The notes: generated by a model from the letters alone, not told the origin. Counted from the first letter of the stretch, positions 1,369 to 44,673 are shown. The stretch: 50,042 nt of DNA from a virus (IMGVR_UViG_640753025_000001:1-50042), one strand, 5' to 3'. Made by a program: numbers and translations.

Positions 1369-1444
1369 GCCGATATAGCTCAGTTGGTAGAGCAGCGCAT
1401 TCGTAATGCGAAGGTCGTAGGTTCGACTCCTATTATCGGCACCA
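1369..1444 (+). tRNA. thrW: tRNA-Thr (anticodon CGU), thrW-type
   Basis: 76-nt sequence GCCGATATAGCTCAGTTGGTAGAGCAGCGCATTCGTAATGCGAAGGTCGTAGGTTCGACTCCTATTATCGGCACCA with encoded CCA end. Confidence 0.9.
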
Positions 1445-1447
1445 TTT
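1399..1447. repeat. attL core: 49-bp direct repeat covering the tRNA 3' end
   Basis: ATTCGTAATGCGAAGGTCGTAGGTTCGACTCCTATTATCGGCACCATTT is repeated exactly at 43256..43304; flanks diverge on both sides. Confidence 0.8.
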
Positions 1448-1458
1448 AAATCAATAAG

Positions 1459-2619
1459 TTACCTCGCATTTAAGTAAACCACGTTCTCCTCTTGTGCCGT
1501 ATTTGTGCCATTGCGACTTATAATCGCATCGATTTTGCTTGCGTGCTCGGTGAGATGCCCGGCTGAAAGGTGGGCGTATCTTTGAACCATTTCGAGAGTT
1601 TCCCATCCTCCCATCTCTTTAAGTGCAAGAAGAGAGACACCAGACTGAACCAGCCAGCTTGCCCAGGTATGCCTCAGGTCATGGAAGCGGAAGTTGCTAA
1701 TGCCTGCCCGCTTTAACGCTCCCTTCCATGCCTTGTTGCTGTCGGTTCTCATCTTCCTTACCGCTGCTGTTTTTGTTCCGTCGCTTCGGTAGGCAGGTTT
1801 GGTGTGGACAAACACCCATCTCTTATGGAGACCCTGCTGTTTTCTTAATATCTGGCATGCGGTTTCGTTAAGAGGAACTCCGATCGCATTGCCAGCTTTT
1901 GTTTCATCAGGGTGCATCCATGCCATTTTCTTATCCAGATCGACCTGTGACCACTCAAGGTCTGTAACGTTGGAACGGCGAAGGCCTGTCGTGATTGCAA
2001 ACATGACCACAGGGAAGAAATGAGGAGCAATTTCTGCAAACAGGCGCTTCGATTCCTCCTCTGTAAGCCATCTGATTCGTCCATTCTTAACGCGTGGTGT
2101 TGATATTTTGGGCGCCCTGTCAAGCCATCCCCATTCAACAGCCATATTGAGAATAGCGCGAAGTATTGCCAGATGCCGCGTCTTCGTTCCTTTGCTTGCC
2201 AGCTTTGGTTTATACTCCGGCACTGGCTTGCCAAGCCGCAAACACCTGTCCCGGCTCATTTCCCAGTTCAGGCGATGGCGGCGGTTTTCCATCCCGTCTA
2301 CCGCCTCCATTATTTTTTCTGTTGTTATGTCTGAGAGAATGGTTTCTCTGAAGTGCAACATCCAGAACGATATAATGCTCTTGTCATCATCAATGGACTT
2401 CTTATCCGATTTCTCACGCAGCCACCGTATGCAGGCTTCCTTGAATAGCTTTTTCGGTGATTCCCCGAGATTTTTTACTCTCCACGCTTCTGCTTTCAGA
2501 CGATCGTGAAGTTCTTGCGCTTGCCTTTTGTCCGATGTTTCAAGAGAGCGTCTAACTCTTGATCCATCTGGCGCGACGAAATCGCAGTGCCACGTGCCAC
2601 CGCGTAGTTTGATTGACAT
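1459..2619 (-). CDS. int: tyrosine integrase, P22 Int-like
   Basis: 386-aa ORF with HDLRHTW and RYAHL catalytic region; 3' end 12 bp from attL. Confidence 0.9.
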   Translation of the reverse strand: MSIKLRGGTWHCDFVAPDGSRVRRSLETSDKRQAQELHDRLKAEAWRVKNLGESPKKLFKEACIRWLREKSDKKSIDDDKSIISFWMLHFRETILSDITTEKIMEAVDGMENRRHRLNWEMSRDRCLRLGKPVPEYKPKLASKGTKTRHLAILRAILNMAVEWGWLDRAPKISTPRVKNGRIRWLTEEESKRLFAEIAPHFFPVVMFAITTGLRRSNVTDLEWSQVDLDKKMAWMHPDETKAGNAIGVPLNETACQILRKQQGLHKRWVFVHTKPAYRSDGTKTAAVRKMRTDSNKAWKGALKRAGISNFRFHDLRHTWASWLVQSGVSLLALKEMGGWETLEMVQRYAHLSAGHLTEHASKIDAIISRNGTNTAQEENVVYLNAR

Positions 2620-2843
2620 GCTTTAACCTCCTGCACATCAACCGCATTCACCGCGCTATTGTGTCTCACAGACTTAAGCGCCGCAATGCAGTCTGACTTG
2701 CAAATGCGATATGGACTTTTAGGTTTATCTGGATTTATCTTTGCGGCCTGAAGTCGTCCACTTCGTATCCACTGTGTGATAGTGCCTTTGTCTACCTTCA
2801 GATACGACGCAGCTTCTTCACGAGTGAAGATTTCTTCTTCCAC
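2496..2843 (-). CDS. xis: excisionase-like protein
   Basis: 115-aa ORF upstream of and overlapping int start; N-terminus MEEEIFTREEAASYLKV typical of P22-type Xis. Confidence 0.7.
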   Translation of the reverse strand: MEEEIFTREEAASYLKVDKGTITQWIRSGRLQAAKINPDKPKSPYRICKSDCIAALKSVRHNSAVNAVDVQEVKACQSNYAVARGTAISSRQMDQELDALLKHRTKGKRKNFTIV

Positions 2844-2928
2844 CTGGAATCTCCATTTGTTGGATTGACATTATTGCGGTAGGTCTGGATATCTTGAGAA
2901 ATGAACAGGCCTCATCGAGTGTGAGGCG

Positions 2929-3273
2929 TTAGTCCTTGCGTAGCTCGCTGATTCTTCTGTAAGTCTGTGGTGCTTTGTTTCCGTGTATCTTCATTTCAGA
3001 CTTCAACAGAGCAACGAGGGAATCCCATTCGTTGAGGATGCCTTTGAATGTCGGAACGCGCTTTGCAACCTTGTCGAATGAATCTCTGATTTCTGGAATC
3101 TGCTCAACAAGTGCAACGCATCGCCGGAAGTCTGCTGCGTCATGGGGAGCGCCGAAGTGATGACCATAGATATTCTTTTTCAGTCCACATGCGATTGAGG
3201 CAAGAGTTGCGCTACTGATGCCAACATCGCCAGTCGATTGCCATTTCAAAACCTTCATAGCCAAATCTGACAT
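2929..3273 (-). CDS. hypothetical phage protein
   Basis: 114-aa ORF, co-oriented with the early-left operon. Confidence 0.5.
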   Translation of the reverse strand: MSDLAMKVLKWQSTGDVGISSATLASIACGLKKNIYGHHFGAPHDAADFRRCVALVEQIPEIRDSFDKVAKRVPTFKGILNEWDSLVALLKSEMKIHGNKAPQTYRRISELRKD

Positions 3274-5923: not shown

Positions 5924-6325
5924 AGGCGATACCGTTATTTGATAAGAAGTGAAGGTTTCCCAACTTTGAGTTGAGCGCCGGGGATATTTATTCCTGCTTT
6001 TAGTTGGTGTTTGATTGCCAGTTTGTCGGCTTTAATTGTTGTTTCAAACTCAACGTATTCTGGAGGAAGGGCGCTTGAGTCGATGATTTCTACAGTTTCT
6101 GACGGTTTGCGGATTGTTACCTGGTGAATACCTGCTCGAATCTTTTTCTTTCCAACCATTTCAAGCGATGACGCTATATACGTCATAATGCTATCAATCT
6201 TATTTTGAATTACTGCTGCTCTTTCATTCAGTGACTTTGCCTCTTCCTTGAGGCGTTCAGCATAACCATGAATCGCCACGGGTTTAACAGACACCTCAGA
6301 GTCATTTAAGATGGCTTAAAGAGAG

Positions 6326-6610
6326 GTGCCCATGAGCGGTAAGCGTTATCCCGAAGAGTTTAAAACTGAAGCAGTCAAACAGGTTGTTGATCGCGGTTAT
6401 TCTGTTGCCAGCGTTGCAACACGTCTCGATATCACCACCCACAGCCTTTATGCCTGGATAAAGAAGTACGGTCCGGATTCTTCCACTAATAAAGAACAGT
6501 CAGATGCTCAGGCCGAGATCCGCCGTCTCCAGAAAGAGCTGAAACGGGTTACCGACGAACGGGACATATTAAAAAAAGCCGCGGCGTACTTCGCAAAGCT
6601 GTCCGACTGA
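6326..6610 (+). CDS. IS3-family transposase OrfA (HTH)
   Basis: 94-aa ORF; A-run (TTAAAAAAAGCC) near 3' end consistent with a -1 frameshift site. Confidence 0.9.
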   Translation: MPMSGKRYPEEFKTEAVKQVVDRGYSVASVATRLDITTHSLYAWIKKYGPDSSTNKEQSDAQAEIRRLQKELKRVTDERDILKKAAAYFAKLSD

Positions 6611-6666
6611 GGTACGCCTTTATCCGTGACAACTCCTGTTGCTGGCCTGTTCGCCTGCTCTGTCGG

Positions 6667-7479
6667 GTGCTGGATGTTCATCCCAGTGGTTTTTACGCCT
6701 GGCTTCAGCAGCCGCATTCACAACGCCATCAGGCAGACCTGAGACTGACAGGACAGATTAAACAGTTCTGGCTGGAATCGGGATGCGTCTATGGTTATCG
6801 CAAAATCCATCTGGATTTGCGTGACAGCGGGCAACAGTGCGGAGTAAACAGAGTCTGGAGACTGATGAAACGTGTCGGAATAAAGGCTCAGGTCGGATAC
6901 CGAAGCCCGCGGGCACGTAAAGGCGAGGCCAGTATCGTGTCACCCAACAGGCTCCAGCGACAGTTCAATCCGGATGCTCCTGATGAGCGTTGGGTAACGG
7001 ACATAACCTACATCAGGACCCACGAAGGCTGGCTGTATCTTGCCGTTGTTGTTGATCTGTTCTCACGCAAAATTATCGGCTGGTCCATGCAATCCCGGAT
7101 GACAAAGGACATTGTCCTGAACGCACTGCTGATGGCTGTATGGCGGCGTAATCCCGAAAAACAGGTGCTGGTTCATTCGGATCAGGGCAGTCAGTACACA
7201 AGCCATGAGTGGCAGTCGTTCCTGAAATCACACGGCCTGGAGGGTAGCATGAGCCGTCGCGGTAACTGCCATGATAATGCGGTTGCAGAAAGTTTTTTCC
7301 AGTTGTTGAAACGTGAACGGATAAAGAAAAAGATCTACGGAACGCGGGAAGAAGCCCGCAGTGATATTTTTGATTACATCGAAATGTTTTATAACAGTAA
7401 GCGTCGGCATGGTTCTAGCGAACAGATGTCACCGACAGAATATGAAAACCAGTATTATCAACGGCTCGGAAGTGTCTAG
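6667..7479 (+). CDS. IS3-family transposase OrfB (DDE catalytic domain)
   Basis: 270-aa ORF from first Met; expected expression as OrfAB fusion by frameshift. Confidence 0.9.
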   Translation: MLDVHPSGFYAWLQQPHSQRHQADLRLTGQIKQFWLESGCVYGYRKIHLDLRDSGQQCGVNRVWRLMKRVGIKAQVGYRSPRARKGEASIVSPNRLQRQFNPDAPDERWVTDITYIRTHEGWLYLAVVVDLFSRKIIGWSMQSRMTKDIVLNALLMAVWRRNPEKQVLVHSDQGSQYTSHEWQSFLKSHGLEGSMSRRGNCHDNAVAESFFQLLKRERIKKKIYGTREEARSDIFDYIEMFYNSKRRHGSSEQMSPTEYENQYYQRLGSV

Positions 7480-7632
7480 ATTATCCGTGGCGATTCACCA
7501 GACTCATTTTTAATAATGGCAAGAAGTTGCTCTATTTTATCGGTAAATTCTCCTTCCATGCCTTCTATTGTGTCAGCAATCATCTCTGGCTCTAAATCTG
7601 AATCCATCAATTTTGCGTATTCATTGGCAATT

Positions 7633-11067: not shown

Positions 11068-11718
11068 TTAAGGAAGGTTTGCTAGCTTGGCATCAACGAC
11101 AACGCCAATGATTTTACAGTTCCCATTGATTTCAATCATTGGGTATTGTGGATTGAGTGGTTTCAGGAATTTTCTACCGGCATCAATAACTAACTTTTTG
11201 AATGTCGCCTCGTTTTCTCCTTCAAGTTTGGCGACTACCAGCTTTCCATTACGTGGTTCGACTTCTGGGTCGACGAGAATAATCATCCCCTCAGGAATAC
11301 TCAGTCCTGCCGGGGCAGTCATTGAATCGCCTTTAACGTCGAGCCAAAAAGAGTCTTCAGAACAATCTACCGTTGTGTCGTACCAGTTATCTATTGCACG
11401 CCTATGATATGGCTCTACAGCTTCCATCCAACATCCTGCGCTTACCCAACTAATTAGAGGATACGAACCTCTTGGATCATGCCTGCTGTGATAGGCAATG
11501 TTTGAAAGACTATCCTCTCCTTTCAACAGGTAATCAGGGGAGCACTGCAAAGCCTTGGCTAAGGCCAATAGGTTTTCGCCATTGGGCTCAGTTTCAGATC
11601 GCTCCCATTGGGAAATAGCAACATTAGACACGCCAACCATCTTGCCAAGGGCAGCCTGCCTAATCTTGAGTTCTTTTCTGCGAGCGCGAATACGCTCACC
11701 CATCAGTTGTGTATTCAT
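11068..11718 (-). CDS. c2: prophage repressor, P22 C2 / lambda CI type (HTH + S24 peptidase)
   Basis: 216-aa ORF; N-terminal HTH, C-terminal S24 domain with intact KGDSM Ser and FKKL Lys; recalled as near-identical to P22 C2. Confidence 0.88.
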   Translation of the reverse strand: MNTQLMGERIRARRKELKIRQAALGKMVGVSNVAISQWERSETEPNGENLLALAKALQCSPDYLLKGEDSLSNIAYHSRHDPRGSYPLISWVSAGCWMEAVEPYHRRAIDNWYDTTVDCSEDSFWLDVKGDSMTAPAGLSIPEGMIILVDPEVEPRNGKLVVAKLEGENEATFKKLVIDAGRKFLKPLNPQYPMIEINGNCKIIGVVVDAKLANLP

Positions 11719-27684: not shown

Positions 27685-27873
27685 ATGGCACGAACAATGC
27701 TCTATAAGCCTGGCAACATGATCACCTGTGGTCAGTTTGCTGTCGATTACATCATTGTTGATGACGAAGAAGTTAAATCTCACCTGAAAAAAGGTTGGGT
27801 AAAAACTCCTGAAGAAACCGCAACGAAGCAAAAAGTGGCTAAGGCGGAAGAAGATGGCGAAAACGAAGGGTGA
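27685..27873 (+). CDS. small hypothetical protein after coat
   Basis: 62-aa ORF from ATG at 27685. Confidence 0.4.
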   Translation: MARTMLYKPGNMITCGQFAVDYIIVDDEEVKSHLKKGWVKTPEETATKQKVAKAEEDGENEG

Positions 27874-28315: not shown

Positions 28316-28324
28316 GGTGAATAA

Positions 28325-30696: not shown

Positions 30697-31151
30697 TGAT
30701 TCAGTTCAAACCAACGCGAAACATCGACCTGATAGAAGCCGTGGGAAATCACCCCGACATTATCACCGGGAGCAACAACGGTGATGGATACGACTACAAG
30801 CCTGAATGCCGTTACTTCGAGGTGAACGTGCACGGGCAGTTCGGCGGCATTGTTTACTATCAGGAGATTCAGCCGCTGACATTCGATTGCCACGCCATGT
30901 ACCTGCCAGAGGTTCGTGGATTCAGCAAGGAAATCGGGCTGGCGTTCTGGCGATACATTCTGACTAACACCACCGTTCAGTGCGTAACATCGTTCGCTGC
31001 ACGCAAATTCCGCCACGGTCAGATGTACTGCGCAATGATTGGCCTTAAGCGTGTAGGAACAATCAAGAAATACTTCAAAGGCGTGGATGACGTGACTTTT
31101 TACAGCGCCACACGCGAAGAACTAATCGACTTCCTGAATCACGGGAGATAG
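30696..31151 (+). CDS. gp14-like head/tail assembly protein
   Basis: 151-aa ORF in gp14 position. Confidence 0.6.
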   Translation: MIQFKPTRNIDLIEAVGNHPDIITGSNNGDGYDYKPECRYFEVNVHGQFGGIVYYQEIQPLTFDCHAMYLPEVRGFSKEIGLAFWRYILTNTTVQCVTSFAARKFRHGQMYCAMIGLKRVGTIKKYFKGVDDVTFYSATREELIDFLNHGR

Positions 31152-31153
31152 CC

Positions 31154-31846
31154 ATGTTATATGCATTTAAGCTGGGCAGAAAACTGCGCGGCGAGGAACC
31201 TTATTGCCCTGAAAAAGGCGGGAAAGGTGGCAGTTCTGATAAAAGCGCAAAGTATGCAGCAGAAGCTCAGAAGTATGCCGCAGACCTGCAAAATCAGCAG
31301 TTCAACACCATCATGAACAACCTGAAGCCGTTTACTCCTCTGGCTGATAAGTATGTCGGCAGCCTCGAGAACTTATCGTCTCTGGAAGGGCAAGGTCAGG
31401 CACTTAACCAGTATTACAACTCTCAGCAGTATAAAGACCTTGCAGGTCAGGCTCGCTATCAGAGTCTGGCGGCAGCGGAAGCAACAGGTGGATTGGGTTC
31501 CACCGCAACCAGTAATCAGTTAGCAGCAATCGCACCAACGCTTGGTCAGCAATGGCTATCTGGACAAATGAACAATTACAACAACCTGGCAAATATCGGT
31601 CTTGGCGCTCTTCAGGGGCAGGCAAACGCCGGGCAAACATATGCCAACAACATGAGTCAGATTTCACAGCAAAGCGCGGCGCTGGCTGCGGCAAACGCCA
31701 ACCGACCGTCAGCATTGCAGCAGGGTGTTAGTGGTGCTGCATCCGGTGCGCTTTTGGGTGGTGGCATAGCCAGTGCTCTCGAGCTATCAACTCCGTGGGG
31801 TGCTGGTATTGGTGCTGGTCTTGGTCTGCTTGGTTCACTGTTTTAA
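31154..31846 (+). CDS. ejection protein (P22 gp7-like)
   Basis: 230 aa, Gly/Ala-rich C-terminus. Confidence 0.75.
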   Translation: MLYAFKLGRKLRGEEPYCPEKGGKGGSSDKSAKYAAEAQKYAADLQNQQFNTIMNNLKPFTPLADKYVGSLENLSSLEGQGQALNQYYNSQQYKDLAGQARYQSLAAAEATGGLGSTATSNQLAAIAPTLGQQWLSGQMNNYNNLANIGLGALQGQANAGQTYANNMSQISQQSAALAAANANRPSALQQGVSGAASGALLGGGIASALELSTPWGAGIGAGLGLLGSLF

Positions 31847-31856
31847 GGGGTAATCA

Positions 31857-33242
31857 ATGGCTACGTGGCAACAGGGTATTAATTCTGGTGGGTTTCTTGC
31901 TGGCATCGGTGCGCAAAATGAGAATGCGCCAAAGGCAAGCGACATTAACGCAACGCTTGGTCTGATCCGCGAAAACAATGAACTGGCTCGCTCAGGTGCA
32001 AATAACGTTGGTCTGACCGCGTTACGTGGTCTGGCTGGAGTTGCTGATATTTACAAGCAGGAACAGCAACAGAAAGCGATTAATGCGTTCAATAAGGTTC
32101 ATGCTGATGCATGGGCTTCTGGTGATCCATCGGGACTATTTAAGTTTGCCCAGGAAAATCCAGCGTTTGTTGCACAGGCACAACAGGCGTTTTCTGGTCT
32201 TAATGATCAGCAACGCAACGATATGGGCGATTTAGCCATGAGGGCTAACGTCGCTCTTTCTCAGGGACCGGAAGCCTACAGTAAATTCATTACTGACAAC
32301 AAGGACAGGTTAAATCGCGTTGGTGCTAATGCTGACTGGATGATTCAGACAGGTATCCAGAATCCAGAGCAGCTATCACACATGCTGACTACTATGTCTC
32401 TCGGTGCGCTTGGACCAGAAAAGGCGTTTGCTGTTCAGGATAAGATGGCTGGTCGTGAAATTGACCGAGGCAGGCTGGCAGAGACAATCCGCAGCAATCA
32501 GGCTGGCGAGGCACTTCAGGCGAGAGGGCAAAACCTTTCCTATCAGTCAGCAATGACTGGACACGGACTTGCAGCAGAAAGACTGGCACTTGATAAGCAG
32601 AAATTCGGTTTTGAAGTACAACAGGCACAAAAGAAGGCCGATGAACTTATTAATGCTGCGCCAAAACTATCCGTGAACATGGAAAAGGCTATAGAAAAAT
32701 CAGCAGGTGATGCGGCAGCTAGTCGTAATGCTGCCGATTCAATGACAACGCTTGCTGACACGCTTGAGAAGGAGAAGCCAACTCCTGGTTTGTTCGGTAA
32801 CGCTGAAAATATGTTCACTAAGCTTACGGGGCAAGATAACTACCTCCGAGATATGCGGATTAGATTCAACCAACTAGCCAATGCGCAGGCAACCAAGCTT
32901 CTCCCCCCCGGCCCTGCATCAGATAAGGATATTGAGTTTGCAAGGAAAGGCATTCCAAGCGAAACGGATAATCCAATGGTCATGGCTCGATGGTTAAGGG
33001 GTATGGCAAAAATGGAAAGTAATAACGCGAAGTTCAACGAGTTTAGGTCAGAGTGGATGAGTGCAAATGGCAGCCCAGGACAATCTGATCGCAACCGAAA
33101 CATCATGGGGATGGATGTTAAGAAGGGTGAATCATTGAACTCTGCGGCAAAACGTTTTCTTTCCTCAAGTTATGGCGATAGCCAACCTCAACAGCAATTG
33201 TCCGATGACGAATTAATTAGCAAATATCTCGGAGGGCAGTAA
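31857..33242 (+). CDS. ejection protein (P22 gp20-like)
   Basis: 461-aa ORF in gp20 position. Confidence 0.75.
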
Positions 33243-35068
33243 TGGCCTATAGTCGTGAACAGTTGATGACGGCGTTAAGGAATGCTGATGCTGCCGGCGA
33301 TACTGAGGGGGCACGTCGCATTGCTCAGATGCTGTCTTCTGGTGATCAATCCACTCAAAACCAATCGCAGCCAGAAGAACAATCTCTGGTGGGAAAAGCT
33401 ACTGACTGGCTCACTGGTGGTCAAAGTGCAGGGCAAATTGCAGAACAGGCTGGCCGTGGTCTGGTAAACATACCATTTGACGTATTGCAGGGTGGCGCAA
33501 GTCTGATTAATGCAATCAGCCAGGGTCTTGGTGGCCCCAAGGTTTTGGATGATGTTTATCGTCCAGTAGATCGACCAACAGACCCTTATGCGCAAGCTGG
33601 AGAAACAATTGGCGGGTATTTAGTTCCAGGAGTTGGAACGGCAGGAAGCATGGCTATTGGATCACTGGCAGAGGCCGCAAATCAGAAAGGCGATTTCGCA
33701 CAAAATGCAGCCAAAAATGCCGGAGTTAACCTTGCCGCTCAGGGTGTTCTTTCCGCAGCAGCAAAGGGAATAGGGCGTGGAATAACGGCTATAAAAGGTG
33801 ATATTGCGCCAGAAGTGGCGAAGAAAATTGCCACATCAGAATCGATGGGCGTGACACCAATGACATCTGATGTTATCCCGCCGAAAAATGCTTTCACTCG
33901 TGGCCTTACTCAGGATGCCGAGGGGGCTTTGCTCGGGACAGGCTCAAAGAGAGCGGAGCAATATGCAACGCGTAGTAAACTGGTAAGCAATTATTTTGAC
34001 CGTTTTGGTGAGTACAACCCTGATGATGTGGTGAAATCTCTTACCACCACGTTAAGGGGGCGGAAGGATGCCGCTGGCGCTGTTATCAATGACGTCACCA
34101 ATAAAATGGGTAATGCCGCAGTTGATACCACAAATACCATGAATGCTCTGAATACAGCGATCGCAAGACAGGAACGGCTTGGGACGTCTGCCAATCAAAG
34201 CCTGCTTACATCCTTGCGTAACCTACGTGAAGAATTAGCAAACCCTGCAACTGATTTGGATGTTACGTTTGATCTCTTGCGTCAGCACAGAACAGCATTT
34301 AGATCTAATGTTCAGGGAGATGCTATGGTCTTCCCCAACCAGGCAAAAGCAGCTACCAATATGGTAGAGAATGCAATGTCAAAAGACCTTCGTAACGCAG
34401 TTGCTAAAAACCTCGGTGCATCAGACGCAGCAAAATACCTTAAAGCAAATTCCGATTATGCAAACGTTTATAATAAGGTGCTTAATAAAAACATTGCCAA
34501 CAAGCTCAACAAGGCAAGCAGTGAAGCCAGTCCTGAACTTATAAATACCGTTGTATTAAGCAGAAAACCATCTGACGTGAAACGAATCTGGAGCGCACTG
34601 GATGATAAAGGGAAAGATGCTATGCGTGCAGCTTACGTCAGCAAAATAGCGGAAAAGGCCGGCGACTCTCCAGCCAAGTTCATCACTGAAGTTAATAAGC
34701 TGAAATCTCAGTCAGGAGGTGAAATTTACAACACTATTTTTTCTGGAAAGCACATGAAAGAACTTGATGCTCTTAATGAAGTTCTACAGCAAACAGCAAG
34801 GTCAGACACCGCAAATGTAGTAACTCAGACGGGGCAATCGCAAGCCAACAGGATAAGGACGATTGGCGCAACTGCGACTCTTGGCGTATCAATGGGGCTT
34901 GAGGCTGGTTTCGGTGCAATGATGCGCTTGTATGAGTCCAAAGCAGCAAGGAATGCGCTCTTACGTCTGGCAAACACTAAAGCTGGAACGCCAGCCTATG
35001 AAAGAGCGCTGAATAACGCCGCAAATGCCATCAGACCAATACTTGCCAATGATGCAACTGATCGCTAA
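33242..35068 (+). CDS. ejection protein (P22 gp16-like)
   Basis: 608-aa ORF in gp16 position. Confidence 0.8.
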
Positions 35069-35089: not shown

Positions 35090-35728
35090 TTAATTGCGAA
35101 TGGAATCGCGGAACTCTTTGCTTGATAGAAAAGGATCTGTTCTCCTTAACTCATCATAGTTTTTATTAAACTTTCTTGCTTCACCTGGGTATCTGTTGAA
35201 CAAAACATTGCAGAAAAAAGAGAGCAATAACTCACATATGAATGCTAATACCCTGAAAAATAAAGGTATAAAAAGAAGGGAAGGTTCATTGAAGTCTCTA
35301 TTCCAAACAAAATAGACAATCATCCCGACATACCAAATTGATATCCCTATACTGATGATTGTTCCAACAGAGGTAACTACGATCCCGATTAAGTCGGACA
35401 GTCTGTTTGCCAGTAACTCATTTGAGTATCTTGCAATCATATACCGCCAACATTTTGCAATATCATCCTGATCTGTAGAGTCTTCTGGAATAGCTAGGCT
35501 TCTACATATTGAAGTAGCTCTTTTTTTCTCAACTCTTTTTGAGATCCATCCATTAAAGAGATACATCAACACCTGCGTTGCTATTCCTGCACCAAGTGAT
35601 ATCAAAGACATCCCCAAAAATCTCCATCCTGGAGATAGTGACTGGTACTGCCAAACAAAAAAAATTAAAAAACCCAATGAGCCTATGACATAGGCTGATG
35701 TATCGCTATATATATCTATTTTTTTCAT
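35090..35728 (-). CDS. membrane protein in sieA position (putative superinfection exclusion)
   Basis: ATG at 35728 (MKKIDIYSD) after AAGGAG; about four hydrophobic segments; AT-rich gene between gp16 and the immI-like region. Confidence 0.55.
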   Translation of the reverse strand: MKKIDIYSDTSAYVIGSLGFLIFFVWQYQSLSPGWRFLGMSLISLGAGIATQVLMYLFNGWISKRVEKKRATSICRSLAIPEDSTDQDDIAKCWRYMIARYSNELLANRLSDLIGIVVTSVGTIISIGISIWYVGMIVYFVWNRDFNEPSLLFIPLFFRVLAFICELLLSFFCNVLFNRYPGEARKFNKNYDELRRTDPFLSSKEFRDSIRN

Positions 35729-35792
35729 TGAGTAGCCACTCCTTAGTTTTGAGCAGAACACCGGATGATAATGTGTCGCTTCCTAAAGGATA

Positions 35793-36434
35793 TCAAAGCA
35801 ACGGGATTTCAAGGTAAACTGCGGTTGCCAAAATACTAACATCTTCATTTCTAACAAGAATATTAGGATACATTGGGTTTAGGGATACTAAGTTTGTCTC
35901 TATTTCACCAATGTAAACCTGCTTGAAGCTCAATATTTGCTCTTTATCCAATGATGCTATTACATAATCTTTGCTTTTAGCTTTTACTAGAGGGCTGAAC
36001 GTGACAACTGATCCTCTGGGAAAGCTAATACCTGAACTTGTAGTCATAGCTTCACCTTCAATAGTCAATGCAAATGCAGAGTCACCAACATTGTATATTG
36101 CCGGATGAAATCTAGACGATGAATGTTCACCTGTGTTTAGGTAATGCATAACTTCATCTAGTTTGAGGATTGGTATTTGCTTTACCAGAACGTCAGGCAT
36201 GACGTTTTTTGTTCCAGGCCCCTGACCTTCACCCAGAGCTAACCACTCAGCCGTAGTGCCTAATGCGTTGGCTAATGCCTGCAATACACGAAGCCGTGGT
36301 TTAGCCTCACCACCCTCGTATGCAGCTATTTGACGTTGAACAACACCAGCTAATTTTGACAACTGCGCCTGCGTCATACCCCTGGACTGTCTTGCCAGAG
36401 ATACTCTTGATGGGAATTGATCGTCAAAATTCAT
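35793..36434 (-). CDS. second CI-like repressor (HTH + S24-like domain, Ser to Ala at nucleophile)
   Basis: 213 aa; HTH GMTQAQLSKLAGV; C-terminal domain aligns to CI/C2 but has GEAM (Ala129, codon 36048..36050) where CI/C2 have GNSM/GDSM. Confidence 0.8.
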   Translation of the reverse strand: MNFDDQFPSRVSLARQSRGMTQAQLSKLAGVVQRQIAAYEGGEAKPRLRVLQALANALGTTAEWLALGEGQGPGTKNVMPDVLVKQIPILKLDEVMHYLNTGEHSSSRFHPAIYNVGDSAFALTIEGEAMTTSSGISFPRGSVVTFSPLVKAKSKDYVIASLDKEQILSFKQVYIGEIETNLVSLNPMYPNILVRNEDVSILATAVYLEIPLL

Positions 36435-36455
36435 TAGTTCACCATAAAAAATTCA

Positions 36456-36484
36456 TTGACTCATACTGAGTGTGAGTGAATAAT
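36456..36484 (+). promoter_or_regulatory. Pant-like promoter for arc-ant operon
   Basis: TTGACT - 17 bp - AATAAT; spacer holds tandem TGAGTGTGAGTG. Confidence 0.5.
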
Positions 36485-36532
36485 CAAACTACAAAAAGTG
36501 AGATTATGAGTTTTTCAAAAACAGGAGTGCAT

Positions 36533-36706
36533 AATGACTGAAAAGATATCTTCCATCAAGCCGCGTCAGGTTCGTTTTACAGAAAAGGTTGATTCACATA
36601 TCCGCGAATCAGCAAAAAGATGCCATAGGTCAATTCAGGCAGAGATAGCTTATCGAATGGAGTTATTGATGAAACTTGAGGCAAAGGGCGATGTTGTCAT
36701 CCAATA
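36533..36706 (+). CDS. arc: Arc-like ribbon-helix-helix repressor
   Basis: 57 aa; RQVRFTEKVDSHIRESAKRCHRSIQAEIAYRM fits Arc/Mnt pattern; below ORF-track cutoff. Confidence 0.65.
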
Positions 36707-36780
36707 AAAATAGTGAAGCCCGGCAGTGCGCGAACACAAACCGGGCCTCTATGTCAGTAACCGTATGCAAGGAAACTAAC

Positions 36781-37407
36781 ATGAATATTGTAGCAAAATC
36801 AGATTACAACTTCCACGGAGTTGAGTTGGTGCCCACCCGTGATATGCATGGTGTTTGGTTTACATCATCTAATATTGCATCTGCACTTAAATATGCAAAT
36901 AGCCGTGCAGTAACAATGATTTATAACAAGTATAGCGATGAGTTTAGCGCCGGAATGACTCAGGTACTCGAAGTGAGTACCTCAGGAAATTATCGCAAAA
37001 AAGTGCGAGTTTTCTCACTACGCGGTGCCCACCTAATCGCGATGTTTGCTCGCACTCCGGTAGCCAAAGAGTTCCGCCGCTGGGTGCTGGATATTTTGGA
37101 TCGGCAGGCAGAATGCTCACCGATTGCAAAACAGTTTACTGACGAAGAACTGGTTAATCTCTGCTACTTACAATTGTGGATGGAGAAGAGTCAACAAATG
37201 TGCAAACACATCTACCCAGGAATGAAGCAAATTGGTTCTGAGCTTTCAGGAAGAATTTACGATATTGCATATGAGACTCGCTATATGTCAGAAGAAACCA
37301 AGAAATCACTTCTTCGTGAAATGAAGAATCTTGATACCAACAATTTTGTCGTAAAGAACGCTCAGCCAATGCTGACAAAACTGCGCGGCGAGGAATGGAT
37401 TCATTGA
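36781..37407 (+). CDS. ant: antirepressor (Bro-N domain)
   Basis: ATG at 36781 after AAGGAA; N-terminal domain (HGVELVPTRDMHGVWFTS...) resembles phage antirepressor N-domain. Confidence 0.7.
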   Translation: MNIVAKSDYNFHGVELVPTRDMHGVWFTSSNIASALKYANSRAVTMIYNKYSDEFSAGMTQVLEVSTSGNYRKKVRVFSLRGAHLIAMFARTPVAKEFRRWVLDILDRQAECSPIAKQFTDEELVNLCYLQLWMEKSQQMCKHIYPGMKQIGSELSGRIYDIAYETRYMSEETKKSLLREMKNLDTNNFVVKNAQPMLTKLRGEEWIH

Positions 37408-38143
37408 TTGGTGCGCCGGACGGCGCAAAAAGAAAACCGCCAGTGTGCTGCTGGCGGCCTATGTCACACCCTTACTACCACATAAGGAATGCCTAATGAC
37501 TTTGAAGAATGTAGCAAACATCGGATCCGTTGTCACGGATAAAACCATTGACAGCCAAAGTCTTCTGATGATGGTTAATGAAGCTCGCAAGTTATGTGGA
37601 GAGCCATCAGTACGTAACAACAAATTCATCGAGAAAATTGAGGATGAATTGGAGGGCGAGACCTACACAAAAAGTGTAGGTCGGAAAAACGGGGCTGACA
37701 TTGATGTTATCTCCATGACTATCAAGCAGGCGCTTCGTGTTGCTGCTCGCGAATCTAAAGCAGTTCGCCGAACACTTGTAGACAAACTTGAAAGTATGCA
37801 AGAAGCGCACATTAAAAGCGGTAAATCGTCGAGTGGACTTGTTGAGTATCGCCAGGCTCGAACATTGAAAATGACGGTTGAAGCTGTTACCAATCTGTTA
37901 GATTTGATGCCAAATCTTGCGCCGGAAGCAAAGCAGACTGCGGCAGCAAGCATAATCAACCCGATAGTTGGTTTTAATGCAATACCTCTTCCAGCAATAG
38001 AAGAGCATTACTACTCAGCAGGGGAGGTTGCAGAGCAGCTTGGAGTAACGGCAAACAAGATTGGTCGCATTGCTAACGCAAACAACTGAATCGCCACGGG
38101 TTTAACAGACACCTCAGAGTCATTTAAGATGGCTTAAAGAGAG

Positions 38144-38428
38144 GTGCCCATGAGCGGTAAGCGTTATCCCGAAGAGTTTAAAACTGAAGCAGTCAAACAG
38201 GTTGTTGATCGCGGTTATTCTGTTGCCAGCGTTGCAACACGTCTCGATATCACCACCCACAGCCTTTATGCCTGGATAAAGAAGTACGGTCCGGATTCTT
38301 CCACTAATAAAGAACAGTCAGATGCTCAGGCCGAGATCCGCCGTCTCCAGAAAGAGCTGAAACGGGTTACCGACGAACGGGACATATTAAAAAAAGCCGC
38401 GGCGTACTTCGCAAAGCTGTCCGACTGA
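38144..38428 (+). CDS. IS3-family transposase OrfA
   Basis: Identical protein to 6326..6610. Confidence 0.9.
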   Translation: MPMSGKRYPEEFKTEAVKQVVDRGYSVASVATRLDITTHSLYAWIKKYGPDSSTNKEQSDAQAEIRRLQKELKRVTDERDILKKAAAYFAKLSD

Positions 38429-38484
38429 GGTACGCCTTTATCCGTGACAACTCCTGTTGCTGGCCTGTTCGCCTGCTCTGTCGG

Positions 38485-39297
38485 GTGCTGGATGTTCATC
38501 CCAGTGGTTTTTACGCCTGGCTTCAGCAGCCGCATTCACAACGCCATCAGGCAGACCTGAGACTGACAGGACAGATTAAACAGTTCTGGCTGGAATCGGG
38601 ATGCGTCTATGGTTATCGCAAAATCCATCTGGATTTGCGTGACAGCGGGCAACAGTGCGGAGTAAACAGAGTCTGGAGACTGATGAAACGTGTCGGAATA
38701 AAGGCTCAGGTCGGATACCGAAGCCCGCGGGCACGTAAAGGCGAGGCCAGTATCGTGTCACCCAACAGGCTCCAGCGACAGTTCAATCCGGATGCTCCTG
38801 ATGAGCGTTGGGTAACGGACATAACCTACATCAGGACCCACGAAGGCTGGCTGTATCTTGCCGTTGTTGTTGATCTGTTCTCACGCAAAATTATCGGCTG
38901 GTCCATGCAATCCCGGATGACAAAGGACATTGTCCTGAACGCACTGCTGATGGCTGTATGGCGGCGTAATCCCGAAAAACAGGTGCTGGTTCATTCGGAT
39001 CAGGGCAGTCAGTACACAAGCCATGAGTGGCAGTCGTTCCTGAAATCACACGGCCTGGAGGGTAGCATGAGCCGTCGCGGTAACTGCCATGATAATGCGG
39101 TTGCAGAAAGTTTTTTCCAGTTGTTGAAACGTGAACGGATAAAGAAAAAGATCTACGGAACGCGGGAAGAAGCCCGCAGTGATATTTTTGATTACATCGA
39201 AATGTTTTATAACAGTAAGCGTCGGCATGGTTCTAGCGAACAGATGTCACCGACAGAATATGAAAACCAGTATTATCAACGGCTCGGAAGTGTCTAG
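38485..39297 (+). CDS. IS3-family transposase OrfB
   Basis: Identical protein to 6667..7479. Confidence 0.9.
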   Translation: MLDVHPSGFYAWLQQPHSQRHQADLRLTGQIKQFWLESGCVYGYRKIHLDLRDSGQQCGVNRVWRLMKRVGIKAQVGYRSPRARKGEASIVSPNRLQRQFNPDAPDERWVTDITYIRTHEGWLYLAVVVDLFSRKIIGWSMQSRMTKDIVLNALLMAVWRRNPEKQVLVHSDQGSQYTSHEWQSFLKSHGLEGSMSRRGNCHDNAVAESFFQLLKRERIKKKIYGTREEARSDIFDYIEMFYNSKRRHGSSEQMSPTEYENQYYQRLGSV

Positions 39298-39471
39298 ATT
39301 ATCCGTGGCGATTCAAACCTCAAAACTGAGCAGTACGGGAAGTTCTTCCTGGATAAATCGGCGCATTCCAGCAAACAGGTAGAGGCGTTCCGTTACAATT
39401 CTGAAGGCGTTAAAGCACTACAACACCTGCTACATGGCTCAAATGTGGCGTAACATTTTATAATGAAAACT

Positions 39472-39497
39472 AAACCCGCTTAATCGCGGGTTTTTTC
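39472..39497 (+). terminator. rho-independent terminator ending the arc-ant operon
   Basis: Hairpin AAACCCGC-TTAATC-GCGGGTTT followed by TTTTC. Confidence 0.65.
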
Positions 39498-39767
39498 TTT
39501 CCTTAGAATTTCAGCCGCAACTTCTTTTACTCGTTCCGAGATTAATGAGGCCAGCCTCTCTTCTTCATCACGATACCCGCTTACAGGTGATGGTTTGGAG
39601 AGTGATTCTTCCATCGTAGCCACAATTTCAGAATTGATAGACCTGTTATTCATTTTTGCACGCTGCTTAATCTTAGCGTGCAACTCGTGTGTAAGCCTCA
39701 AGTGGAACTGCGCCTCATCGTATTTGCTGTACATCATCAATGCCTCACCAAATGGGTGGAATGGCAT
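39480..39767 (-). CDS. mnt: Mnt-like ribbon-helix-helix repressor
   Basis: 95-aa ORF; LRLTHELHAKIKQRAKMNNRSINSEIVATMEESLSKPSPVSGYRDEEERLA matches the P22 Mnt pattern as recalled; true start may be an internal Met. Confidence 0.65.
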   Translation of the reverse strand: MPFHPFGEALMMYSKYDEAQFHLRLTHELHAKIKQRAKMNNRSINSEIVATMEESLSKPSPVSGYRDEEERLASLISERVKEVAAEILRKEKTRD

Positions 39768-39867: not shown

Positions 39868-41778
39868 ATGACTGACACCAATTACCTGATCTCTATGCCG
39901 TCTACACCTTTTTCGGCGCCACGAGCATTTAAATCAGTGGCGAACGGGAAAATCTATATCGGAAACCCTGACACTGACCCGGTAAATCCTGCTAACCAAA
40001 TTCCGGTATATGCCGTTAATGAGAATGGATCCGAGGTTCAGGTTTCTCAGCCAATCATCATTAACGCTGGAGGCTTCCCTGTTTATAACGGGCAGATTAT
40101 GAAGTTCATCACCAAACAGAACTTCAGCATGGCGGTGTATGATGCATATGGGGCGCAGCAGTTTTACTGGATTAATGTTGCAAATATGGACCCAAACTCT
40201 GCGTATCTGGAAGCGGTTAATGATGTTCTTGCAATGCTGGGCTCAAGCGATGGCGCAAAACTGATAGGTGGAATGAGCTTTCTTACAGCGGAAATGTACT
40301 CTCATCTTGTTGAAGGGATGGACTGGAGGAAAGCAATTCAAGCTGCTATAGACCAAGCTCACCAGAACTATTTAGCCGGAAGCGGCCCAACCAATATTCT
40401 CATTGGAGGTGAATTCTCCGTTACTCTCAATCCTAATTCAACTTTGATACCTGGTGAGGTTGCTGCGGGTCGAGGTGCGCTGTGTATGCGTAGTGGTGTA
40501 ACACTGATGGGCGGCGGAGCAATCACGCTTGATGGCAATTTTACTGGCTCAGCCAGCGGCGCAATCATTACAAACTGGGAAGGCGCCGCCGATAACTGCA
40601 AGATTCAGGGGATCACGCTTAACGGCAGCCGTGGCACCGCTGCCGGAACGGGGATTACCTGCATTAATATCTTGGACTCGGATAATGTCACTATTGATAA
40701 CGTTAAGGCGATAGATAGCACTTCTGGAGGGATTTATTTACGCCGAGCTAACAATACGGTTTATGGCTGTTCTAACTCAAGAATTATGAACTGCTACGTT
40801 CACAACGTTGAATATATTGGCATTCAGTGTGAACGCCCCAACGGGATGACCATTACGGGATGTGCCGTAGCCTCCTGCGGTGATAATGGCATTGATATCT
40901 TTGGTAACGTAACTGACGAATCTGGACAGGGAGTTGCGGAGGATGTTGTTGTTAGTAATAACACTATCCGTGATGTAAGCGTAGGAGTGTTCATCGAATC
41001 ATGCGGAAACGTGGCAATATCTTCGTGCCGTATTTCAGGATTTAGTAACTCTGGTGTTTTCTTTAACCGGATAAATACAGCTGCGTATAATTGTTCTGTA
41101 ATTGGATGCACGATAACAGGGGCGGATATTACCTCCAGCCAGGGCATCCGCTGGAAGAATGCAGTTGGTTACACTCGCGTTTATAACAACACACTAAAAA
41201 ACTGTATTGACTCCTTTGTGACAACTGGAGGGATGATTTACGTTGATATTGGGGTGAATAACCATGAAAGCATTGGCAGGTGTTTTCTTTACGTTCCCAA
41301 AAAATCTAACGGATGTGTCTATACAAGAATGGTTCAGCAGGTCTACAACGGAGTTCAGACAGATGGCATACCGTACAACACGACACCTCGTGGTTGGCCA
41401 TCCGCAAACAACACTAGGTACTATCGCTGTTCATTCACCGCGCCGTACATGATGTATTCCGCTACGACTGGGGAAGATAACCTCATTCGGGCTACAGGCA
41501 ATTTGCCATTCAACAGTGGCTGGGGGCCTGCTTACTCGCTATACAATACGATTGTTTCTGGAGAAACAGTAATAGCCATGGGGAGCTCGCTACTGTCTGC
41601 CGGTGAATACATGCTAATAAACGGTTATTATTATTTAGTTTATAGCGTCACATCATCCTATGCTGTAGTAAGGAAATGGGATGTATCCAGTCAGGACTAT
41701 ATTGCCGGAGACTACACATCTTATTTAAATAGCGCATACGCATATTCCATCTTCAGAGCTGCTTGGGGAACACTATGA
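39868..41778 (+). CDS. tailspike protein (P22-type head-binding domain + divergent receptor-binding domain)
   Basis: 636 aa; N-terminal ~110 aa (FKSVANGKIYIGNPDTDPVNPANQIPVY) collinear with P22 gp9; remainder Gly/Asn/Ser/Thr-rich with repeated short strands. Confidence 0.88.
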   Translation: MTDTNYLISMPSTPFSAPRAFKSVANGKIYIGNPDTDPVNPANQIPVYAVNENGSEVQVSQPIIINAGGFPVYNGQIMKFITKQNFSMAVYDAYGAQQFYWINVANMDPNSAYLEAVNDVLAMLGSSDGAKLIGGMSFLTAEMYSHLVEGMDWRKAIQAAIDQAHQNYLAGSGPTNILIGGEFSVTLNPNSTLIPGEVAAGRGALCMRSGVTLMGGGAITLDGNFTGSASGAIITNWEGAADNCKIQGITLNGSRGTAAGTGITCINILDSDNVTIDNVKAIDSTSGGIYLRRANNTVYGCSNSRIMNCYVHNVEYIGIQCERPNGMTITGCAVASCGDNGIDIFGNVTDESGQGVAEDVVVSNNTIRDVSVGVFIESCGNVAISSCRISGFSNSGVFFNRINTAAYNCSVIGCTITGADITSSQGIRWKNAVGYTRVYNNTLKNCIDSFVTTGGMIYVDIGVNNHESIGRCFLYVPKKSNGCVYTRMVQQVYNGVQTDGIPYNTTPRGWPSANNTRYYRCSFTAPYMMYSATTGEDNLIRATGNLPFNSGWGPAYSLYNTIVSGETVIAMGSSLLSAGEYMLINGYYYLVYSVTSSYAVVRKWDVSSQDYIAGDYTSYLNSAYAYSIFRAAWGTL

Positions 41779-42245: not shown

Positions 42246-42485
42246 ATGCACCGTCAGTCAGACATCTATCAGGCTTTCCGCGAGTCGGTATTGCGCAACT
42301 CCAAAGGCTACCAGTATCTGCATACAAAGGATTTTGTGTCAGCGCTGCTCCGGCGTGGGCTGCACTTTACCGACTCAGAGGCTAATGCGTGGATATCTAG
42401 AGAGCAGACGTACTTTGTCGACAAAACCACCGACCATAGCGAAAACCGTTTGTGGATGATGGCTAACATGGGGAGGGTTTTGTAA
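42246..42485 (+). CDS. hypothetical protein, first gene of LexA-box operon
   Basis: 79-aa ORF after AGAGGGAAG; stop overlaps next start (TAATG). Confidence 0.55.
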   Translation: MHRQSDIYQAFRESVLRNSKGYQYLHTKDFVSALLRRGLHFTDSEANAWISREQTYFVDKTTDHSENRLWMMANMGRVL

Positions 42486-42802
42486 TGGGCTTTCCTTCAC
42501 CCGCAGCGGACTACGTCGAGCAGCGACTGTCCGTTAACTCGATATGCAATGTTGGTCCTAACACCCGCGTTTTCGAAAGGGATGGCGGTTATGTTGTGCT
42601 GGATATCTCCCTGAAGCCAAAGCAGGGTAGTCAGGTTCTGATCCAGCACGGCGGCGGGACTGAGCTTGCCACGTTGAGAGGGAGGGCCCTGATTACTGAA
42701 GACGGCGAAGCGATTGAAGGCGAGGCCCTGGATGATATCACTGTCGCCGGCGTGGTGACACACACCATCATCGATGTGAGAAGTGACAGCGTAGCGGTAT
42801 AA
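42485..42802 (+). CDS. UmuD'-like protein (S24 fold, no Ser/Lys dyad, starts at the UmuD' N-terminus)
   Basis: 105 aa starting MGFPSPAADYVEQR, the segment just after the UmuD Cys-Gly cleavage site; GDSM Ser and catalytic Lys positions not conserved. Confidence 0.6.
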   Translation: MGFPSPAADYVEQRLSVNSICNVGPNTRVFERDGGYVVLDISLKPKQGSQVLIQHGGGTELATLRGRALITEDGEAIEGEALDDITVAGVVTHTIIDVRSDSVAV

Positions 42803-42833
42803 GGCAGGCTTTTTAGTGGCCTGCCGCTTTTGA

Positions 42834-43064
42834 TTACTGTGTCTTTTCGTCCAGCCAGTCCGCCCACCACTGCATCATTTCTCTGCGTTTATCGAGATAC
42901 TGAGCATGGTTGTATATTCCACGCACAGATCCGCCGTTGGCATGAGCGAGTTGCACTTCGATAGTTTCGTGATGCACCAAGTGATCAAAGTAATGAAATT
43001 TAACATCCAAGCCTCCATCGATCGATACTTGCGGTAGTTGATAAGGAAAAACTATGGTACACAA
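42834..43064 (-). pseudogene. C-terminal fragment of a P4-type tyrosine integrase
   Basis: EVQLAHANGGSVRGIYNHAQYLDKRREMMQWWADWLD aligns with the C-terminus of the intact integrase at 43465..44673; no N-terminal/catalytic part. Confidence 0.6.
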
Positions 43065-43255
43065 AGCGTTGCACTGGATTGCAAGGCTTTGTGCTCTTCT
43101 GTGGATGTGTGGCTACATGTTTGAAGATCGTTGTGCCGAATTTGTGACATACACATGACAACATCATGCATCAACTTTCTGTTTGTGCCATCAACTATAG
43201 CTTAGTGAATGCGGTTAATGCTTGCTAAAACAGATAGTTATGATTGGTGCTACAG

Positions 43256-43304
43256 ATTCGTAATGCGAAGGTCGTAGGTTCGACTCCTATTATCGGCACC
43301 ATTT
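43256..43304. repeat. attR core: 49-bp direct repeat (displaced 3' part of thrW)
   Basis: Exact copy of 1399..1447. Confidence 0.8.
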
Positions 43305-43464
43305 CAAACTCTTCCCAAGTCTACCGAAATCAACTAAAAGCTCGTATACTGCGGTTTCTGGCCCGTATCTTATCTCCTGTTATCAACTAGACTCAACCGA
43401 AATCAAGTCGCAGTTGGGGGCATAAGTGGGGGCATTTTGTGTTCGGTCTAGGGAGATGCCCCCA

Positions 43465-44673
43465 ATGAAACTTAATGCGCGACAGGTAGACGCAGCTAAA
43501 CCCAGAGAGAAAGCCTATAAGCTGGCAGATGGTGCTGGTTTGTATCTTGAGGTTGTTCCCTCTGGTTCCAGATACTGGCGGATGAAATATCGCTTCAATG
43601 GAAAAGAGAAGCGTATGGCCTTTGGTGTCTATCCGGCAGTGTCCCTTGCACAAGCGAGGGCACTGCGTGACGACGCCAAGAAAAAGCTTGCCGAAGGTAT
43701 CGATCCATCGCTTGCCAAGAAAGAAGAAAAGCTGGTTCGAGATGTGCAGCTAAATAATACGTTTCAGGCTGTGGCACTTGAATGGCATGGAACGAAGGTG
43801 AGCCGATGGTCAGAAGGTTATGCCTCGGACATTATCGAAGCCTTTAATAAAGATATTTTTCCCTATATTGGCCAACAACCGGTGAATGAAATCAAACCGC
43901 TGGTTCTGCTTAATGTGCTGCGTCGAATTGAAAGCCGTGGCGCGACAGAGAAGGCCAAGAAGGTTCGCCAGCGTTGCAGCGAAGTCTTTCGTTACGCCAT
44001 CGTAACCGGTCGTGCGGAATACAATCCTGCAGCGGATCTTACCAGCGCGATGTCAGGGCATGAATCGAAGCATTATCCCTTCCTTACTGTTGAGGAGTTA
44101 CCAGACTTTTTTAAAGCTCTCGCAGGCTACACAGGAAGCCCGTTAGTTGTTCTTGCGGCACGTCTGCTGATCCTCACGGGAGTTCGCACTGGCGAACTCC
44201 GAGGTGCTTTCTGGAGTGAGTTTGATCTTGAAAAAGCGGTGTGGGAGATACCTGCCGAGCGTATGAAGATGAAACGGCCTCACCTTGTCCCCCTCTCTAC
44301 CCAAGCGCTGGAAATCGTACAGCAACTCAAAGTGATGTCAGGGCAATATCCACTGGTGTTCCCGGGACGTAATGATCCCCGCAAGACGATGAGTGAAGCG
44401 AGTATTAATCAGGTTTTTAAGCGGATTGGATATACGGGGAGGGTAACGGGGCATGGTTTCCGTCACACGATGAGTACGATTTTGCATGAGGAAGGTTTCA
44501 ATACAGCGTGGATTGAAACCCAGCTGGCTCACGTTGATAAAAATGCGATTCGTGGGACGTATAACCATGCGTTGTATTTGGAAGGACGTAGGGAGATGAT
44601 GCAGTGGTATGCGGACTATATAAACGCTAATCATAATTCATGTATTTCTTTGCTGGTGAACGCTACAAAGTAG
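43465..44673 (+). CDS. int: tyrosine integrase, P4 type
   Basis: ATG at 43465 after GGGAGA; catalytic HGFRHT and RGTYNHALY regions; begins 160 bp after the tRNA 3' repeat, reading away from it. Confidence 0.9.
   Translation: MKLNARQVDAAKPREKAYKLADGAGLYLEVVPSGSRYWRMKYRFNGKEKRMAFGVYPAVSLAQARALRDDAKKKLAEGIDPSLAKKEEKLVRDVQLNNTFQAVALEWHGTKVSRWSEGYASDIIEAFNKDIFPYIGQQPVNEIKPLVLLNVLRRIESRGATEKAKKVRQRCSEVFRYAIVTGRAEYNPAADLTSAMSGHESKHYPFLTVEELPDFFKALAGYTGSPLVVLAARLLILTGVRTGELRGAFWSEFDLEKAVWEIPAERMKMKRPHLVPLSTQALEIVQQLKVMSGQYPLVFPGRNDPRKTMSEASINQVFKRIGYTGRVTGHGFRHTMSTILHEEGFNTAWIETQLAHVDKNAIRGTYNHALYLEGRREMMQWYADYINANHNSCISLLVNATK

Follow-up and report, generated by a model that had tools for sequence, protein, structure and literature searches.

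The thrW tRNA gene of Escherichia coli HS holds two independent integrative elements in tandem, a P22-like prophage followed by an island with a P4/CP4-type integrase, and this reading is given a probability of about 0.88. Both elements begin in the stretch IMGVR_UViG_640753025_000001:1-50042, of which the full 50,042 nt are referred to here as the window. Over its first 25 kb, the window matches the E. coli HS chromosome (NZ_CP185286.1) at 100 % identity, starting at chromosome position 1023011. The RefSeq annotation of this identical record was used for gene calls across the window, and the HS sequence beyond it was taken from the public HS genome (extension L002, in which position 23459 is equivalent to window position 66448). 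Comparisons were made with strain JNE170426 (L004) and with K-12 MG1655 (L005, 262871-297205). Tandem occupancy of thrW had been proposed in an earlier description of the window, made without database searches (the sequence-only reading). It is demonstrated here at the base level by the attP arms of phage HK446 and by the junction in JNE170426, and every coordinate in that description was correct. Both elements are of well-known kinds, each already described in the literature, and their arrangement is ordinary for a tRNA hotspot and largely known.

A single tRNA gene, tRNA-Thr(CGT), was identified in the window by ARAGORN, downstream of proA. Rfam concurs, and in a scan of the whole window only this tRNA was matched, with no regulatory RNA at the junctions. 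The 49-mer ATTCGTAATGCGAAGGTCGTAGGTTCGACTCCTATTATCGGCACCATTT, made up of the last 46 nt of thrW and the three bases after it, is present exactly twice, at 1399-1447 and at 43256-43304, and did not occur in 100 dinucleotide shuffles. The start-to-start distance between the copies is 41,857 bp and all of the DNA between them is P22-like prophage. The proposal that the full tRNA-Thr and a 49-bp repeat of its 3′ end bracket a 41.9-kb P22-like prophage is thus upheld by the tRNA prediction, the exact repeat, its spacing, and the gene content.

The junctions identify which DNA belongs to which element. In a side-by-side alignment, the right arm of HS attL and the left arm of HS attR are those of HK446 attP, and the sequence to the right of HS attR (CAAACTCTTCCCAAGTC...) is the same as that found after the intact thrW in JNE170426. 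Recombination between attL and attR would therefore restore a normal attP and a normal junction between thrW and the island. With an att site at either end, the phage can excise; the 3′ part of the intact thrW at attL was regenerated from phage DNA. The att anatomy is the signature of a simple integrase-mediated insertion. The int-xis-attP module (window 1399-2900) has 98-99 % identity with HK446, mEp213, mEpX2, and HK75, all of them siphoviruses with an attP annotation that notes similarity to thrW and ptwF. The SfX-type attP arm, from approximately 43048-43060 onward, is also common to unrelated prophages in other tandem arrays. Within the 49-bp attL core is the 17-nt core TCCTATTATCGGCACCA used by the P4-type island; the att core of the island is about 17-19 nt long and is nested within the 49-nt core of the phage, so that a single sequence acts as phage attR and island attL.

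The island integrase begins 160 bp beyond 43304 and is transcribed away from the tRNA copy, in agreement with the sequence-only reading. Its open reading frame matches Arm-DNA-bind_3 (DUF4102; 3.5e-29), Phage_int_M (4.5e-34), and Phage_integrase (6.8e-23) in Pfam, as well as PRK09692 (1.9e-90), and it matches the integrase domains of CP4-like elements and CPS-53 in the PDB. An identical protein (WP_000772656.1) is present in strains JNE170426 and HCP8S3_I1. In JNE170426, this integrase and the same following genes come directly after an intact thrW, with no phage there, and in many other complete genomes DNA 100 % identical to the integrase region is found immediately past an annotated tRNA-Thr. 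The island in JNE170426 is approximately 37 kb. It contains the integrase, a methyltransferase, an ORC/Cdc6-like ATPase, a hypothetical protein, IS1, a broken gene, and then brxA-brxB-brxC-pglX-pglZ-brxL; after brxL are two zinc-ribbon genes, a Gp2-type gene, regulators, a GTPase, and Ag43, and the distal genes continue with DUF932, antirestriction, RadC-like, DUF987, and CbtA toxin. It ends in TCCTATTATCG-CACCATT, which reproduces roughly the final 19 nt of thrW minus one base, after which the backbone resumes with yagP', paoDCBA, yagU, ykgJ, and ecpEDCBA-R. Essentially the same island is present in 12 other strains (at least 88 % of the query, 98.2-98.7 % identity).

The HS element has the properties of a P4/CP4-type island: the integrase architecture, its position and direction at the tRNA copy, a foreign GC content (a fraction of 0.34 in the cassette compared with 0.535 in proA-thrW), and cargo that is absent from empty-site strains. 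The P4/CP4 tRNA islands, including the thrW islands PAI III536 and Vat/Tsh and CP4-6 of K-12, have the same site (PMC7545054), low-GC cargo, an integrase just past the tRNA end and directed away from it, and a short att core. Unlike these named islands, the HS copy has neither attR nor the distal module, and its cargo is anti-phage defence rather than virulence.

As the two elements are contiguous and have an att sequence in common, it might be argued that they form one composite element, either a phage with defence cargo or a single 65-kb island. This is extremely improbable. The island is at thrW without the phage in JNE170426, and its integrase region likewise in many other genomes; the phage arms give a normal attP, as in HK446; and in HCP8S3_I1 unrelated phages precede the same island. 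A 65-kb composite would also be more DNA than a phage of about 42 kb is expected to package. Mobilisation of neighbouring chromosomal DNA, reported for the prophage, would suit a composite, but a cured strain has been obtained (bioRxiv 10.64898/2026.05.19.726188).

The far end of the island, said in the sequence-only reading to be outside the window, was located through the HS extension. HS and JNE170426 are co-linear as far as L002 23459, at 96.8-99.9 % identity and with the same IS1, and 23.1 kb of the island are kept. Past the third copy of an IS3-family insertion sequence (IS), HS resumes at L004 27548, inside ecpA (at about codon 28). Compared with JNE170426, the locus lacks 26,222 bp, made up of 12.9 kb from the distal part of the island, attR, and 13.3 kb of backbone (yagP'-paoDCBA-yagU-ykgJ-ecpEDCB and most of ecpA). 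The distal part of the island and its attR appear to have been lost by deletion, with the IS3-family element at the junction. It had been suggested that the sequence be extended past 50042 in search of another copy of the tRNA 3′ end; the extension was made, for 50 kb, but there is no such copy downstream of HS attR, not even of 10-11-mers. The distal direct repeat of a tRNA island is thus missing in HS, while it is present in JNE170426.

Absence of a further repeat had been put forward as a sign that the second integrase is a remnant. The repeat is indeed absent, but 23.1 kb of co-linear island and an intact integrase gene remain. It is therefore very improbable that the integrase is an orphan outside any island, even with IS1, IS3 elements, and a broken gene in the region. 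The integrase is full length and identical to that of complete islands, the 23.1 kb to its right, IS1 included, are co-linear with the JNE170426 island, and empty-site genomes exclude these 23 kb as core chromosome. The HS island keeps its integrase gene but is unbounded. It very probably cannot excise and would be fixed in place because there is no partner att site.

The prophage has the characters of a P22-like temperate podophage: a P22-type virion cluster, a lambdoid early region with an immI region, and int/xis insertion at the 3′ end of thrW. The virion assembly genes are in the canonical P22 order (terminases, portal, scaffold, coat, gp4, gp10, gp26 needle, ejection proteins, and tailspike). 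By annotation, the early region includes RecT, a LexA-family CI, Cro, CII, replication genes, nin genes, and a Q-like antiterminator, with the lysis genes next. The single P22-like prophage of HS has been described as phiHS4, which is mitomycin-C inducible, forms podovirus particles, is readily cured, moves adjacent chromosome by lateral transduction, and gave zero plaques on all hosts tried (bioRxiv 10.64898/2026.05.19.726188). The thrW prophage is most likely this phiHS4, because the best PDB match of its tail-needle knob is the "HS1 knob domain" (4k6b, 1.3e-90; needle and knob also match 3rwn) and HS, according to the preprint, has one P22-like prophage. Inducibility and particle formation are reported for phiHS4 in the preprint, in which there is no mention of thrW, tRNA, or integrase.

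The order of arrival is drawn from comparisons between strains. In tandem arrays at tRNA and tmRNA genes, successive integrations regenerate the tRNA and partial tRNA copies separate the elements. The same partial-copy pattern is seen in HCP8S3_I1, where the same island, there decayed by IS1, is preceded by a myovirus-type prophage that is unrelated but has the same attP arm, and in ZF8-1, where a P22-like prophage lies ahead of a P4-satellite-like element. HS differs from the usual arrays in its nested cores of unequal length (49 nt and about 17 nt) and in an inner element immobilised by an IS-associated deletion. The most economical history would be island first and phage second. The island was most probably first at thrW, with the phage then inserting between the tRNA and the island. 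The phage integrated by means of an SfX/P22-type integrase and excisionase, through recombination between its attP and the 49-bp 3′ end of thrW, which restored a full tRNA at attL, with the 49-bp partial copy remaining at attR. IS3-family copy 3 joins island DNA to ecpA, and the island is left without attR.

The opposite order, with the phage first and the island later entering the partial tRNA copy at the phage attR, is unlikely. This copy holds the full 17-nt island core and is a possible target. However, 12 other strains have essentially the same island, JNE170426 has IS1 in the same position with no phage at thrW, different phages lie ahead of related islands elsewhere, and a phage that came last takes fewer events. 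Some points do weigh against the overall account. As to the order of integration, a P4-type integrase could in principle have used the partial tRNA copy at an existing phage attR. Relocation of the 26 kb within HS, for example by an IS-mediated inversion, stands as a formal alternative to their deletion. The equation with phiHS4 depends on the single P22-like prophage of the preprint, which gives no coordinates.

Comparison with unoccupied sites, as had been recommended, was made using an empty site built in silico from the K-12 thrW and ptwF flanks. It is found empty at 100 % identity in ATCC 8739 and with at least 80 % coverage in 948 of 5,426 complete genomes; the great majority of genomes therefore have a thrW site that is occupied or rearranged, which agrees with its standing as a known integration hotspot (PMC7545054; hotspot #33 of PMC10121019). 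Literature searches found no paper on the HS thrW tandem array or on HS ECP status. As a tandem array at a well-known tRNA hotspot, it is a textbook case and no concept is changed by it. The features of the region are listed in Table 1.

Table 1. Features of the thrW region of E. coli HS, in window coordinates unless marked L002 (HS extension).
Feature	Coordinates	Strand	Evidence or remarks
proA (glutamate-5-semialdehyde dehydrogenase), chromosomal left flank	1..1254	+	RefSeq annotation of HS record
thrW, tRNA-Thr(CGT), intact	1369..1444	+	ARAGORN; Rfam tRNA, 71.8 bits
Prophage attL core, 49 bp	1399..1447	+	Exact repeat; HK446 attP match starts exactly at 1399
Tyrosine integrase, SfX/P22 type	1459..2613	-	Pfam Phage_integrase, 1e-34; 3′ end 15 bp from tRNA
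Excisionase (HTH_17)	2496..2843	-	Pfam; excisionase annotation in HK446
IS3-family copy 1, 1229 bp	6269..7497	+	Exact repeat; NCBIfam transpos_IS3; 3-bp target duplication CCA; in Gp157-family accessory gene
CI-like repressor, LexA family, SOS-inducible immunity	11068..11718	-	Annotation; fits phiHS4 description (bioRxiv 10.64898/2026.05.19.726188)
Small terminase	21335..21775	+	phrog_309 terminase small subunit, 2e-68
P22-type virion module: large terminase, portal, scaffold, coat, gp4, gp10, needle with knob, ejection proteins	21772..35068	+	Annotation
immI-like accessory region: SieA-like protein, repressor, two anti-repressors, Arc	35090..39767		PHROGs; annotation
IS3-family copy 2, identical to copy 1	38087..39315	+	Target duplication AAC; splits anti-repressor gene
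Tailspike	39868..41778	+	Annotation; PHROGs tail spike/fiber families
Two small accessory genes (phrog_3893; UmuD-like)	42246..42802	+	Also at ends of Klebsiella lambdoid phages
Relic, C-terminus of a different P4-type integrase	42834..43064	-	Annotated pseudogene; within phage right arm
SfX/P22-type attP arm, left arm of attR	43048..43255	+	Common to SfX, HK446 attP, and other tandem arrays
Prophage attR core, partial thrW copy, also island attL	43256..43304	+	Exact repeat; junction comparison
Island integrase, P4/CP4 type, 402 amino acids, intact gene	43465..44673	+	Arm-DNA-bind_3, Phage_int_M, Phage_integrase
N6-adenine DNA methyltransferase with own target-recognition region, GC ~33 %	44915..46123	+	Pfam N6_Mtase, Eco57I; PADLOC MTase_II, 8e-237
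ORC/Cdc6-like P-loop ATPase with zinc ribbon	46116..47822	+	Pfam PF24389, Zn_ribbon_3; NCBIfam Sll1717-family ATPase
HEPN-fold protein, predicted RNase, 356 amino acids, invariant R218-x4-H223 motif	47800..48870	+	
IS1, 768 bp	49056..49823	-	Terminal inverted repeats; without target duplication
Island beyond IS1	49824..50042		Continues outside window: broken gene, brxA-brxB-brxC-pglX-pglZ-brxL, two zinc-ribbon genes, Gp2-type gene, IS3 copy 3, truncated ecpA
IS3-family copy 3	L002 23455-24683		Target duplication absent (flanks GTT, CTG); abuts truncated ecpA

The prophage shares with the P22-like thrW phages (P22, Sf6, HK620, and the SfX-type module of HK446, mEp213, and HK75) the virion gene order, the immI region, the lambdoid early region, the integrase and excisionase, and the 49-bp thrW core. 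Unlike them, it has two IS3-family insertions and a relic of a P4-type integrase by attP, and among phage records the coverage of either prophage half is at most 59 %. Two 35-bp direct repeats, 66 bp apart at 12955-13055, are probably origin iterons; they lie inside a gene upstream of the DnaB-like helicase gene, in the position of a replication initiator and annotated just as hypothetical. Between the Q-like antiterminator and the holin, 822 bp (17978-18799) are without an annotated gene, and no tRNA or Rfam family was matched there.

The relic has 48 % identity to the C-terminus of the island integrase (E 4e-17) and 78 % identity to the integrase of Klebsiella phage RCIP0114. In RCIP0114 there is the same order of two hypothetical genes and an integrase, with the integrase reading inward. 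A similar relic is in the P22-like prophage of ZF8-1. As an annotated pseudogene from the C-terminus of a P4-type integrase, it could be taken for the decayed remains of a third integrated element, situated between phage and repeat, which is highly unlikely and was rejected. The fragment is to the left of the SfX-type attP arm and therefore belongs to phage DNA and would excise with the phage, with no third integrated element, and the parallels in RCIP0114 and ZF8-1 agree with this. The relic is the trace of an earlier integration module and evidence of a past swap of modules.

The IS3-family element (NCBIfam transpos_IS3, 5e-101) has the ends TGAATCGCCACGG...CCGTGGCGATTCA. The IS3 family is characterised by two overlapping open reading frames with a programmed frameshift, terminal inverted repeats, and a 3-bp target duplication, and the element is assigned to it on the NCBIfam match, its ends, and the target duplications of copies 1 and 2. 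When the anti-repressor gene was rebuilt in silico without the IS, a 241-amino acid open reading frame was restored that matches the phrog_1726 anti-repressor (2.4e-100), and the Gp157-family gene, annotated as split by copy 1, was also reconstituted in silico. Both of the prophage genes that were hit are accessory, which fits the reported inducibility. The three 1229-bp copies are identical and in direct orientation within about 65 kb. Recombination among them could delete 31.8 kb of prophage, or the entire segment from prophage to BREX.

IS1 was found where the sequence-only reading had placed it, from 49056, with its terminal inverted repeats. To the right of IS1, 927 bp are missing in HS compared with JNE170426, and this loss cuts short a gene upstream of brxA that is divergently oriented and was frameshifted already.

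The cassette at 44915-48870 is a conserved three-gene set (GC 0.34) that is also found, in synteny, beside integrases in Stenotrophomonas and Pseudomonas. It was not recognised as a system by PADLOC. The C-terminal residues 258-400 of the methyltransferase match the NCBIfam model for the MADS5 restriction endonuclease subunit S. For the third gene, PADLOC, Pfam, and NCBIfam gave no usable family match and a PDB sequence search was empty. One homologue (P0038) is fused to methyltransferase domains.

The six-gene type 1 BREX cluster brxA-brxB-brxC-pglX-pglZ-brxL is complete in the RefSeq annotation, with PADLOC matches for BrxA (3e-115) and BrxB (5e-68). It is located at L002 7537-20923 (window coordinates 50526-63912) and begins approximately 5.85 kb past the stop codon of the island integrase. 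The reference E. coli BREX system comes from HS, a model gut commensal, and the island system is that very system, BREX-Ec, with no difference. In experiments on the cloned system, GGTAAG was methylated and lambda was blocked (PMC6326788). A pan-genome survey reported BREX at hotspots #1 and #37 only, with none at #33, the yagP-proA tRNA-Thr site (PMC10121019). Here, it is at the site of hotspot #33 in HS and in about 12 other complete genomes. Its context, on a truncated thrW island beside an inducible prophage, is possibly new information. This neighbourhood bears on the reading of prophage-cured and BREX-deleted HS strains, and on the spread of BREX. In a segment internal to pglX (L002 13974-15302), the HS and JNE170426 islands, 97-99.9 % identical elsewhere, show zero nucleotide match; the segment may represent an exchange of the recognition region of the BREX methyltransferase, implying a different target motif.

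The BREX island is immediately downstream of an inducible P22-like prophage, in the inferred direction of packaging. By analogy with P22, the small terminase gene is expected to contain pac, with packaging going rightward. From an un-excised prophage, packaging would start at pac (~21.3-21.8 kb) and go rightward as in P22, and an initial in-situ headful of 41-43.4 kb would reach approximately 62.3-65.2 kb (window coordinates). This headful would contain the prophage's right half and the attR-less island, with the cassette and most or all of BREX. The preprint on phiHS4 mobilisation does not state the side and makes no link to BREX (bioRxiv 10.64898/2026.05.19.726188). It is possible, though on balance doubtful, that the stranded island moves between strains mainly by lateral transduction by phiHS4 and, separately, that the methylase/ATPase/HEPN triplet is an uncharacterised defence system related to restriction-modification.

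The possibility that the HS island is CP4-6, the occupant of this site in K-12, was considered and rejected. IntF of CP4-6 has 22 % identity to the island integrase over 147 amino acids of the catalytic region, its polarity is opposite, and the cargo is different. In K-12 MG1655, IntF adjoins ptwF and reads inward, and it is the toxin-antitoxin end of CP4-6 that adjoins thrW. One end of CP4-6 resembles the distal module of the complete island (GTPase, Ag43, DUF932, antirestriction, RadC-like, and CbtA); with the HS island, CP4-6 shares only the insertion site.

In the backbone right after the distal thrW repeat, a stretch of about 70 bp resembles the 3′ end of an SfX/P22-type integrase (L005 36762-36830 in K-12; L004 14217-14290 in JNE170426). 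This stretch is present in empty-site strains too, and it looks like an old prophage scar.

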